64,000 nt of DNA from assembly GCF_057098645.1 (NCBI RefSeq), contig NZ_JBXSPU010000002.1; one strand, written 5' to 3'. The first letter of the stretch is position 1. Each line of letters starts with the position of its first letter. Below are positions 49,905 to 55,736 of this stretch, piece by piece. The translations under genes and the position numbers were made by a program. The notes under the pieces were generated by a model that worked only from the letters and a program-made list of their open reading frames with translations, was not told the origin of the DNA and did not search any database. Source of the stretch: a plasmid.

Positions 49905-49946
49905 TGAACCGCCCCGGGTTTCCTGGAGAGTGTTTTATCTGTGAAC

Positions 49947-50837
49947 TCAGGCTGCCAGATCATCGTTTCCGATGGAAGCATAATAAGCTTTTTCTGCTTC
50001 TGCCGGGGGAGTATGGCCCAGCCTTTCCAGCAATCGTCGATTGTTATACCAGTCCACCCACGTGAGTGTGGCCAGTTCCACTTCTGCACGGTTTTTCCAG
50101 CTCTTACGGTGTATTACCTCCGCTTTGTAAAGACCATTGATGCTCTCCGCCATCGCGTTGTCATACGAGTCACCTGTACTCCCTGTTGATGCCAGCAGTT
50201 TTGCTTCTTTTAGTCGCTCCGTATAGGCCAGTGATACATACTGAGAACCTTTATCACTGTGATGGACTGTGCCGGACGGCCGACGGGCCCACAACGCCTG
50301 CTCCAGTGCATCCAGCACGAATGTTGTTTCCATGGATGATGAGACCTGCCATCCCACGATGTATCCGGCGAACACATCAATGATGAACGCCACATAAACG
50401 AAGCCCCGCCATGTGCTGACGTAAGTAAAATCAGCCACCCACAGCTGGTCAGGTCGTTCTGCCACGAACTGACGGTTTACGCGGTCGCCTGCGGCAACGG
50501 CTTTCCGGCTGATGGTCGTACGGACCTTTTTACCCCGGAGAACACCGGCAAGTCCCATAACTGCCATGAGACGTGCCACAGTGCATCTGGCCACTCTGAT
50601 ACCTTCCCGTAACAACTGACGCCAGACTTTACGCACACCGTATACCTGGTGATTTTCATCGTATACGCGCTGTATCTCTTTCTTCAGCCAGTCATCGTGC
50701 TGCGCACGGGCACTGCGTTTATCCGGATGATGTCGCTGTTGCTGACAGTGGTAATACGTTGACGGGGCAATATGCAGTTCGCTGCATAGCGGTCCGACCC
50801 CGTACTGCTCACGCAGCTTATCCAGCAGTGGCATCAT
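49947..50837 (-). CDS. IS629 OrfB (DDE transposase domain)
   Basis: IS3-family integrase-core ORF. Confidence 0.85.
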
Positions 50838-51160
50838 TTTTTCCAGAGGCGGTCGAACTCCGCCTTCGCAAAATAAGCGGAAGCCTGGCGAAGGATATCG
50901 TTACTGCGGCGCAGTTCACGATTTTCACGCTCCAGCTCTTTCAGACGCTGACGTTCAGCGGTGGTGAGCCCGCCATCACCGCCCCCGGTATCCCGCTCAT
51001 GCTGGCGAACCCAGACACGCAGAGTCTCCGGCGTACAGCCAATCTTTGGAGCAATGGAACAAATTGTCGCCCATTGTGAGTCATATTCATCCTGACTTTC
51101 CAGAACCATACGAATCGCCCGCTGACGGACTTCGGGGGAAAAACGAGTATTTTTAGTCAT
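50834..51160 (-). CDS. IS629 OrfA (HTH/leucine-zipper)
   Basis: [23 protein letters not shown]... Confidence 0.85.
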
Positions 51161-51271
51161 CCTGTTTACCTCTTTCTCAGGGAGTTTAGTCTCCAGGATT
51201 TCCGGGGCGGTTCAGCCATAAAGTTATGTTCCTGACGTATGTATTCGTCCCGCAGGAATCAACCAACTGAT

Positions 51272-51661
51272 TTATCTGAATTTATCATGCCCCTCAACTC
51301 TGATTTTATTCATCTTGTTTACCGAATCGGGTATATCTGATAACTGTCCCGATAAGACTTTTTGTTTCGCCAGCATAATCTCTTTTTCAAGCTTTTGAAG
51401 TTCTTTTATATAGTCATTCTTCCCTTCTTCATCAGCCGGTGAAATGCTCTCAGGAAGACGCTTCATTGACTCATCTACAGCATCATCCATTCTGTCAAGA
51501 GCTTCAAGAAGCTCCTTTTTATCCATTGATGACTGAAGTACACTCATATTCCTTGCAAGAACTTGCATGCTTTCATCAAGTTCTTCTGCCACTGTAATCC
51601 CCCCACACAAAAAATATAATGCCATACCACAGCTGATTATAACTTTATTGCTTTTCTGCAT
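51272..51661 (-). CDS. hypothetical exported protein downstream of katP
   Basis: 129-aa ORF with N-terminal hydrophobic signal-like segment; charged helical remainder. Confidence 0.45.
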   Translation of the reverse strand: MQKSNKVIISCGMALYFLCGGITVAEELDESMQVLARNMSVLQSSMDKKELLEALDRMDDAVDESMKRLPESISPADEEGKNDYIKELQKLEKEIMLAKQKVLSGQLSDIPDSVNKMNKIRVEGHDKFR

Positions 51662-53915: not shown

Positions 53916-54087
53916 ACGAATAGCTCCGGATTAAGGGAAATTCGCATGTTGTATACAAAAGTCAACTTTATTGATGCAACAGGATATACCTATTGCTGGG
54001 ATAGATACTACAGACAAAAAATACTAAGGGGTTCCAAGCCGCAACTGAACCGCCCCGGTTTTCCTGGAGAGTGTTTTATCTGTGAAC

Positions 54088-54978
54088 TCAGGCTGCCAGA
54101 TCATCGTTTCTGATGGAAGCATAATAAGCTTTTTCTGCTTCTGCCGGAGGGATATGACCCAGCCTTCCCAGCAATCGTCGATTGTTATACCAGTCCACCC
54201 ACGTGAGTGTGGCCAGTTCCACTTCTGCACGGTTTTTCCAGCTCTTACGGTGTATTACCTCCGCTTTGTAAAGACCATTGATGCTCTCCGCCATCGCGTT
54301 GTCATACGAGTCACCTGTACTCCCTGTTGATGCCAGCAGTTTTGCTTCTTTTAGTCGCTCCGTATAGGCCAGTGATACATACTGAGAACCTTTATCACTG
54401 TGATGGACTGTGCCGGACGGCCGACGGGCCCACAACGCCTGCTCCAGTGCATCCAGCACGAATGTCGTTTCCATGGACGATGAGACCCGCCACCCCACGA
54501 TGTATCCGGCAAACACATCAATGATGAACGCCACATAGACGAAGCCCTGCCATGTGCTGACGTAAGTAAAATCAGCCACCCACAGCTGGTCAGGTCGTTC
54601 TGCCACGAACTGACGGTTTACGCGGTCGCCTGCGGCAACGGCTTTCCGGCTGATGGTCGTACGGACCTTTTTACCCCGGAGAACACCGGCAAGTCCCATA
54701 ACTGCCATGAGACGTGCCACAGTGCATCTGGCCACTCTGATACCTTCCCGTAACAACTGACGCCAGACTTTACGCACACCGTATACCTGGTGATTTTCAT
54801 CGTATACGCGCTGTATCTCTTTCTTCAGCCAGTCATCGTGCTGCGCACGGGCACTGCGTTTATCCGGATGATGTCGCTGTTGCTGACAATGGTAATACGT
54901 TGACGGGGCAATATGCAGTTCGCTGCATAGCGGTCCGACCCCGTACTGCTCACGCAGCTTATCCAGCAGTGGCATCAT
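54088..54978 (-). CDS. IS629 OrfB (copy 2)
   Basis: near-identical to copy 1 (e.g. WQGFVYVAF vs WRGFVYVAF). Confidence 0.85.
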
Positions 54979-55301
54979 TTTTTCCAGAGGCGGTCGAACT
55001 CCGCCTTCGCAAAATAAGCGGAAGCCTGGCGAAGGATATCGTTACTGCGGCGCAGTTCACGATTTTCACGTTCCAGCTCTTTCAGACGCTGACGTTCAGC
55101 GGTGGTGAGTCCACCATCACCACTCCCGGTATCCCGCTCATGCTGACGAACCCACACACGCAGAGTCTCTGGTGTACAGCCAATCTTTGGGGCAATGGAA
55201 CAAATTGCCGCCCATTGTGAGTCATATTCGCCCTGACTTTCCAGAACCATACGAACTGCCCGTTGACGGACCTCGGGGGAAAAACGTGTATTTTTAGTCA
55301 T
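54975..55301 (-). CDS. IS629 OrfA (copy 2)
   Basis: near-identical to copy 1. Confidence 0.85.
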
Positions 55302-55736
55302 CCTGTTTACCTCTTTCTCAGGGAGTTTAGTCTCCAGGATTCCCGGGGCGGTTCAAGGTTTGCTTTTCTGTGTAGGTTTAGATTTTGTGTTTGCAGGGTA
55401 AACAAAACTGATTAACTCGTCATTTCGGTAACTGAAATAGTTTGCTGTATTCTGTTTACAATCTCTTTAATAAGGCATTTGTCACGTGGCTATTCATATG
55501 AAAATCATACGTTATCTTACAAATCAATCATCTGAGTGTTATAATATAACTTAGCTGTGATATGTGTAAGAATGTTTAGGCAATATATTATTATCGCTAA
55601 TGTTGTTTTGGTTGGGAGAGATTCTCCTTGCGGTAGCTTTTTGTTTTTAGATGCTTCTTGCTTAAAAAGATATAATTTCTGTTCTTTTATATAGGATTCT
55701 TTACATTTACTGAGTTTTCTTATTTATTTAAACATT

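Follow-up and report, generated by a model that had tools for sequence, protein, structure and literature searches.

Organisation of the katP region

We examined a 64,000-nt stretch of plasmid DNA (NCBI RefSeq assembly GCF_057098645.1, contig NZ_JBXSPU010000002.1), referred to below as the window, in which katP, the gene for a periplasmic catalase-peroxidase, and a small gene downstream of it lie between two copies of the insertion sequence (IS) IS629, next to the enterohaemolysin operon ehxCABD. An earlier note, written from the sequence alone, had described positions 49905-55355 as a composite-like unit made of non-identical IS629 isoforms, and as an old or recombinant assembly rather than a recent duplication. 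As argued below, the region is probably the katP module of the large virulence plasmids of enterohaemorrhagic Escherichia coli (EHEC), residing in a pO103-type backbone and exchanged by homologous recombination at IS629. The two complete IS629 copies are called c1 and c2, and the copy at the right end of the window c3; a slash within a sequence marks a junction. The features of the region are:

49018..49893, minus strand: 3′ remnant of traH, corresponding to residues 169-457 and severed by the left end of c1
49905..51214, minus strand: IS629 copy c1, 1310 bp, full length, with terminal TG...CA inverted repeats
49947-50837, minus strand: c1 orfB, 296 aa, rve/DDE
50763-50879: c1 ALIL frameshift pseudoknot (RF01497, 120 bits)
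50834-51160, minus strand: c1 orfA, 108 aa, HTH_Tnp_1
51215..54045, minus strand: passenger segment, 2831 bp, its limits being the exact IS629 ends
51272..51661, minus strand: cytochrome b562-family gene, 129 aa, with an N-terminal hydrophobic leader (the "exported protein" of the earlier note)
51674..51696: GC-rich 10-bp hairpin from a terminator-like scan, lying past the katP stop codon and ahead of the cytochrome b562-like start
51705..53915, minus strand: katP, periplasmic catalase-peroxidase, 736 aa
53916..54045, minus strand: katP upstream region, 130 bp, the sole remainder of the native 5′ context
54046..55355, minus strand: IS629 copy c2, 1310 bp, full length, upstream of katP and in the same orientation
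54088-54978, minus strand: c2 orfB, 296 aa
54904-55020: c2 ALIL pseudoknot (120 bits)
54975-55301, minus strand: c2 orfA, 108 aa
55356..55736, plus strand: truncated native region upstream of ehxC, with the IS629 junction at ...GAG/AGGTTTGC of the uninterrupted pO157/pO145 sequence
55737..62863, plus strand: enterohaemolysin operon ehxCABD, with c2 on one side and the inverted c3 on the other (from open reading frames and the annotation of the collinear NZ_CP024480)
63817..64000, plus strand: IS629 copy c3, in the opposite orientation to c1 and c2, with 184 bp visible up to the window end

A repeat search of the window placed c1 and c2 in direct orientation, with their transposase genes on the minus strand, and a base-by-base comparison of the two gave 34 substitutions, most of them transitions, and no indels (97.4% identity), the likeness ending exactly at both termini of each copy. 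Both have the terminal sequences TGAACCGCCCCGG...CCGGGGCGGTTCA. Their orfA (PF01527) and orfB (PF00665, rve; NCBIfam transpos_IS3 at 313-315 bits in both copies, cutoff 160) are in the −1 frameshift arrangement, and the reading frames and the ALIL pseudoknot are intact in each, so that c1 and c2 are full-length and apparently functional members of the IS3 family. Thousands of annotated IS3-family/IS1203 copies share 95-99% identity with them; the best full-length match for c1, among about 31,000 IS629 places in 5,426 complete E. coli genomes, was 98.0%, and that for c2 in E. coli genomes was 99.2%.

Thus the earlier note correctly placed katP and a downstream exported-protein gene between two direct IS629 copies: its coordinates were exact, and the careful alignment that it had called for left the copies non-identical. 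At the protein level OrfB differs at 5 residues, with the motifs quoted in that note present as given, and OrfA at 4. Its description of the copy at 63817 as partial and as a further mosaic did not hold, since c3 is cut only by the end of the window and its 184 visible bp are identical to a full-length orthologous copy in pO45-1.

KatP was assigned by NCBIfam TIGR00198 (the HPI equivalog; 1083 bits, cutoff 770) and PRK15061 (1213 bits), and its DNA is 100% identical to annotated katP genes encoding WP_000592771.1. The second passenger gene starts 43 bp downstream of katP, and its product is identical to a protein named cytochrome b562 in RefSeq (WP_001172748.1); it exceeds the cutoff of Pfam PF07361 (54.5 bits against 30) and stays below that of the NCBIfam equivalog (63 bits against 130), and is probably a divergent member of the family rather than the orthologue of chromosomal CybC. 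It has a Met in EELDESM near the mature N-terminus and a His in VEGHDKFR at the C-terminus, which presumably correspond to the haem-ligand positions of E. coli cytochrome b562. A haem protein carried beside a haem catalase-peroxidase might point to a functional link between the two. On the coding (minus) strand no T-run follows the hairpin at 51674..51696, and the ribosome-binding site of the next gene is found there instead; the two genes are probably co-transcribed. The 130-bp upstream region would presumably hold the katP promoter and a regulatory site, although a simple sigma-70 scan of these 130 bp gave no promoter match; katP is said to be regulated by OxyR, an observation attributed to Uhlich 2009, a paper cited in PMC6985150.

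The same site and cassette in other plasmids

In a plasmid collection and the complete E. coli genomes, the best match to the region was NZ_CP024480.1 (strain 2011C-4315), at 99.2% over 7.5 kb and with unchanged gene order, followed by pO103_PV16126 (NZ_AP038988.1, below PV16-126) and two or three others. Both named plasmids share with the window the order traH′ - IS629 - cytochrome b562-like gene - katP - IS629 - ehxCABD, and their junction sequences and passenger are identical to those of the window; unlike the window, they are without the ML35-type central patch, described below, in both of their IS copies. The window in turn differs from its pO103-type relatives in an IS21-family insertion at 46076-48715 and in being joined to IncHI1 tet(X4) DNA. 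The passenger is 100% identical over its 2831 bp in pO157, pO26_1, NZ_CP024480, PV16-126, F2_81 and pOK1-1, which comprise three backbone types.

Comparison with pO157-type plasmids, which the earlier note had proposed for the flanks, gave an identical passenger and an identical katP-side junction, and unrelated outer flanks. In both pO157 (O157:H7) and pO26_1 (O26:H11 strain 11368) a full IS629 is found on the katP side at the same junction as in the window, GCCGCAAC/TGAACC. The other IS629 of pO157 is without its last 278 bp and abuts espP DNA, and that of pO26_1 is a divergent fragment (93% identity) without its first 480 bp, beside parM. In pO157 (locus L002, 2977-4008) the 278-bp deletion stops no more than 2 bp from where the IS used to end, leaving the passenger boundary in place; the shortened copy may be the result of an end-anchored internal deletion. 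Across the other plasmids as a whole, the cassette lies beside espP, parM, stcE or RepB DNA, sharing one flank or none with the window, and its second IS is truncated or inverted.

The traH′/IS629 junction, on the other hand, is common to 23 plasmids of the plasmid collection, of which about five carry katP. The remaining plasmids (about 18 of the 23) have a single IS629 followed directly by ehxC, without katP. Such single-IS629 alleles include pO103 of strain 12009 (NC_013354), pO45-1 (NZ_CP101303) and PSUO103 (CP014753), all with the left junction of the window. The single copy of PSUO103 also has a right junction identical to that of the window and is of the c2 type in its right two-thirds, and therefore fits a deletion product of c1 and c2. 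In 12009 and pO45-1 the right junction is shorter by 2 bp, and the single copy is of the resident type throughout, indicating a separate allele. Among conserved pO103 plasmids, katP has been described as the sole difference in gene content, besides a few IS insertions and deletions, and as an insertion peculiar to the clade C3 strain (PMC12831630).

Mosaic structure of the two IS629 copies

The 34 differences between c1 and c2 are not scattered along the element, but form three blocks with identical runs of 298, 340 and 181 bp between them (P<1e-5): when substitutions were placed at random, the observed sum of the three largest gaps was matched in 0 of 100,000 trials, and a runs test limited to sites that are polymorphic in the IS629 family gave the same significance (P<1e-5). 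The comparison with NZ_CP024480 shows the same concentration of change in the IS copies. The unique DNA of the two plasmids differs at 5 positions in 11,165 bp (0.045%), while the two IS copies differ at 61 positions in 2,620 bp (2.3%), about 50 times the level of the unique DNA. All 61 differences (35 and 26 per copy, and more when the window is compared with PV16-126) fall within IS positions 503-1227 of c1 and 421-931 of c2. More generally, IS629 copies at the same positions in plasmids that share the passenger are 95.6-98.0% identical to those of the window.

Most of the blocks could be assigned to a named relative, with 0 differences in tables of variable sites. In c1, positions 1-493 (that is, to about 500) are identical to the orthologous copy of NZ_CP024480, and the first 130 bp also to the one IS629 resident in pO103 and pO45-1; positions ~501-1163 are of the isoform found on the ML35 chromosome, near-identical to it over 501-1135; and from position 1100 to the right end c1 is identical to the F2_81 copy. 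Triplet tests broke both copies up into segments of different IS629 isoforms, with clean switches of parent (P<1e-5); c1 showed 25 informative sites of the orthologous type followed by 25 of the ML35 type. In c2, both ends (positions 1 to about 388 or 410, and from about 1021-1026 to 1310) are identical to the orthologous NZ_CP024480 copy and also equal the katP-linked copy type of pO157 and pO26_1, and positions ~421-931 are of the ML35 type. The ML35-type central block occurs at ≥99% identity in 948 records, and is therefore a real and common isoform.

Judged by their sequences, c1 and c2 are of different descent, the ends of c1 being of the type resident in the backbone and those of c2 of the katP-linked type, and in the middle of each there is evidently a patch of a third isoform, its tract limits differing between the two. 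The origin of the ends agrees with the proposal that the unit is not a recent duplication: c1 matches the resident IS629 of the backbone, and c2 the katP-linked copy of pO157/pO26_1. The alternative "old or recombinant" is upheld in its second half, by the clustered blocks and triplet switches, and not in its first, as the passenger is 100% identical across plasmids. It follows from this identity that the differences between the copies reflect exchange among pre-existing isoforms, and not divergence in place.

Such patches would be the outcome of gene conversion, with other IS629 elements of the host cell as donors. Subtypes of IS629 that differ by 4-5% coexist in EHEC (Rump et al. 2011, PMC3271280), and can provide a pool from which patches are drawn. 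That paper appears to treat subtypes I-III (IS1203-like, Shigella-like and O26-like) as discrete, while the copies in the window are patchworks of several. At the single traH′ site, at least 8 distinct IS629 sequences are found across plasmids, indicating that exchange has been recurrent. We also observed that the inverted IS629 pair around ehx in PSUO103 (locus L007, 7711-9020 and 17556-18865) is identical over 1310 bp, while orthologous pairs elsewhere differ, which may be due to homogenisation of inverted repeats or to collapse during assembly.

Junctions and target duplications

On its left side c1 interrupts traH, the remnant of which matches the NCBIfam TraH equivalog at profile positions 169-456 of 457, and the intact traH of pECOS88 runs on past the traH′/c1 junction. 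On the right side of c2, the region upstream of ehxC runs unbroken in pO157 and pO145 plasmids through ...AACAGGAG/AGGTTTGC, which marks the place where IS629 once inserted. The three bases flanking each copy are GGG and GCC for c1 and AAC and AGG for c2, so that the outer pair is GGG and AGG, in agreement with the earlier statement that the outer ends share no target duplication. Target duplications of 3 and 4 bp were sought at each copy, at the outer and inner pairs and at cross-pairs including c3, and none was found; neither is there an outer duplication around the katP unit in pO157, pO26_1, F2_81, 14EC001 or 2014C-3011. Three pieces of DNA sought as traces of an inversion are all absent from the window: the 5′ portion of traH, the left portion of the native sequence upstream of ehxC, and the right flank of F2_81. 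The loss of the first two suggests that earlier IS-mediated deletions, which removed the 5′ part of traH and native DNA upstream of ehxC, would explain the missing duplications. A 3-bp duplication is a trait of a fresh insertion and not of IS629 itself, and its absence points to later rearrangement.

Junctions next to IS629 are not quite fixed between plasmids. On the side of the cytochrome b562-like gene the flank reads CTGCCATAAAG in pO26_1, GCCATAAAG in the window and ATAAAG in 2014C-3011; on the katP side the inverted IS629 copies of 14EC001 and 2014C-3011 sit 6 and 9 bp closer; and on the ehxC side the flank is AGGTTTGC in the window and PSUO103, and GTTTGC in pO103 of 12009 and pO45-1. 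Shifts of a few bp suggest either that insertion beside a terminus already in place has recurred, or that small deletions have occurred adjacent to the IS. We also considered an IS629 target in traH resembling the terminal inverted repeat, as BLAST alignments of plasmids with an intact traH ran 10 bp into the IS, but only 7 of the 10 bases match (GGAAGAGCCC vs TGAACCGCCC) and the idea was dropped.

Gain and loss of the katP module

The arrangement fits the description of a composite transposon in that two IS copies bracket a passenger, the outer terminal repeats are intact, and so are the transposase frames and the frameshift signal. It departs from that description in having no outer duplication, and in that the "empty" allele is a single IS629 rather than uninterrupted DNA. 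The term "composite-like unit" used earlier is therefore apt as to form and not as to movement as a transposon, since most relatives have a single IS629 at the site and there is no duplication around the unit; the structure appears to be a composite transposon in form only and to behave as an IS-bounded module. We favour the reading in which the presence or absence of katP results from recombination between IS629 copies. Loss of katP would be a deletion between the direct repeats c1 and c2, and gain would occur either by integration of a circular IS629-katP molecule or by exchange between plasmids. IS629 on both sides of katP, together with the single-IS629 alleles, explains in one recombination step the patchy distribution of katP within clades of O103:H2 and related serotypes.

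Several observations weigh against this reading. If c1 and c2 had been formed by one simple reciprocal crossover, c1 should combine a resident left part with an incoming right part and c2 an incoming left part with a resident right part, a prediction that fits no plasmid examined: c2 is "incoming" at both ends in all three plasmids with this context, and c1 of PV16-126 is wholly "resident". One must then invoke either conversions at a later time or a crossover at the very tip of the element. The commonest single-copy allele, that of 12009 and pO45-1, has a right junction shorter by 2 bp; this makes it neither an immediate precursor of the katP allele nor an immediate product of it, and a second event is needed. 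Finally, both IS copies and the outer inverted repeats look intact, and transposition of the whole unit would be mechanistically conceivable. A scheme in which c1 and c2 are the reciprocal products of one crossover, between the resident IS629 and an incoming copy of the pO157 type, was tried and set aside, as no plasmid fits it cleanly.

It is unlikely that the region is a true composite transposon, that is, a Tn3411-type element with katP as its cargo that moved as a unit by the outer ends of c1 and c2 and later lost its 3-bp duplication through IS-adjacent deletions. Tn3411 is a citrate-utilisation composite transposon flanked by direct copies of IS3411, and the window resembles it in having its passenger between two direct copies of one IS family member; this precedent, the full length of both IS copies, the intact orfA, orfB, pseudoknot and outer terminal repeats, and the occurrence of the module in several unrelated contexts with limits exactly at the IS629 ends all speak for transposition. 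IS3411 is itself an isoform of IS629 (PMC3271280). However, Tn3411 is defined by demonstrated transposition, whereas the katP unit has neither the duplication nor the empty site expected of it. About 18 relatives have a single IS629 at the exact left junction, and PSUO103 has the right one as well, so that the unit would need to have landed exactly on that copy and replaced it. An outer duplication is found in none of six or more contexts, and in pO157, pO26_1 and 2014C-3011, where one flanking copy is truncated, the cassettes could not move as composites in their present form. Yet less probable is a translocatable unit with one IS (the katP segment plus c2), inserted conservatively by the transposase beside the resident IS629 in the manner of IS26, which would require neither duplication nor long homology. 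This could account for c1 of PV16-126, wholly of the resident type, and for c2, incoming at both ends, as targeted insertion predicts and a crossover within the element does not, and for the 2-3-bp shifts of junctions beside IS629 ends; IS3-family elements such as IS911 can target sequences like their own ends. Nevertheless, the IS629 transposase is of the IS3-family rve-type DDE kind with a frameshifted orfAB, not of the IS6 family, and only the outcome, a cassette beside an IS with no duplication, resembles that of IS26; to our knowledge, no conservative targeted-insertion pathway has been established for the IS3 family. The PV16-126 pattern may equally be secondary, given the extensive later gene conversion.

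Two further explanations concern the mosaic itself. An artefact of assembly or polishing, in which reads from many IS629 copies were mixed into a chimeric consensus, is improbable, even though 1.3-kb repeats are a classic problem in short-read polishing and c1 has no match above 98.0% among the IS629 places searched. Against it, independent assemblies contain real isoforms that match every block exactly or almost exactly; the parent types change over cleanly and are not mixed site by site; no reading frame is broken and the pseudoknot is intact; and other independent assemblies carry distinct mosaics of their own at the same site. The view that the unit is old, arising from one duplication with slow divergence of the copies in place, would be in keeping with 34 mostly transitional substitutions without indels, but has next to no probability: the 2831 bp between the copies are unchanged relative to pO157, pO26_1 and pO103-type plasmids, and the differences are strongly clustered and coincide with polymorphisms already segregating among IS629 isoforms. 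It is refuted by the passenger identity, the clustering and the triplet tests. There is a slim chance that patches are exchanged by the machinery of the element rather than by RecA-dependent gene conversion, which would be a new behaviour for the IS3 family; candidate routes would be the recombination of copy-out circles into resident elements, the action of the EHEC IS-excision enhancer, or the targeted insertion of a katP+IS629 circle in the manner of IS26. If so, the sequence of an IS could serve neither as a clock nor as a marker of lineage when EHEC are typed.

Among the markers by which EHEC virulence plasmids are profiled, katP is one of those variably present. Because the IS copies exchange patches, the differences between them do not date the insertion, and usable signal is found only in the unique DNA between and around them. 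The IS629-bounded arrangement of katP is already present in public plasmids and in the literature (it has reportedly been known since the pO157 papers of 1998), and the diversity of IS629 isoforms has been published; what is known of katP or IS629 is unchanged by these results. Blockwise overwriting of IS copies fixed in place is a modest addition to these facts, and we found no paper in the literature searched that describes IS629 mosaicism here.

Join to IncHI1 tet(X4) DNA and other repeats in the window

Most of the DNA to the left of the katP region is of another type. IncHI1 tet(X4) plasmids of about 190 kb, such as pYPE10-190k-tetX4, match it with 100% identity over positions 1-28102 and 30743-46075, and from 48716 on the window consists of DNA of a pO103-type EHEC virulence plasmid (traG/traH remnants, katP, ehxCABD). 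The two are joined at an IS21-family element, 46076-48715, and this copy is absent from the closest pO103-type plasmid. No record spanning the join was found in the plasmid or E. coli genome collections, and no paper pairing tigecycline with katP or ehxA in the literature searched. The window may represent a hybrid of resistance and virulence plasmids, or assembly may have gone wrong at the IS21-family repeat. If real, the join would place last-resort tigecycline resistance and EHEC virulence genes on one plasmid, and would be more consequential than the katP cassette. The resistance module spans positions 2266-12309 and includes:

2266-3480: floR
4612-5958 and 9320-10813: two ISCR clade Ia (ISCR2/ISVsa3-type) transposase genes
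7345-8958: ABC-F ribosomal-protection-like gene
11152-12309: tet(X) (866 bits, cutoff 750), annotated as Tet(X4) in the identical plasmids

The IS21-family element at the join has a perfectly identical inverted partner, so that two 2640-bp copies with istA/istB (28103-30742 and 46076-48715) enclose 15.3 kb of IncHI1 DNA, which has the opposite orientation in the reference plasmid. Next to the two copies is a 4-bp duplication in inverted form (GTGC at 28099-28102 and GCAC at 46072-46075), and the whole looks like the footprint of an intramolecular replicative transposition. A direct-repeat pair at 21992 and 38318 marks another IS, which the reference plasmid does not have at 38318-39374. In the IncHI1-derived part there are also three IS1-sized repeats (about 769 bp) at 13407-14175, 18204-18973 and 20618-21386, which are 91-99% identical to one another and in mixed orientation.

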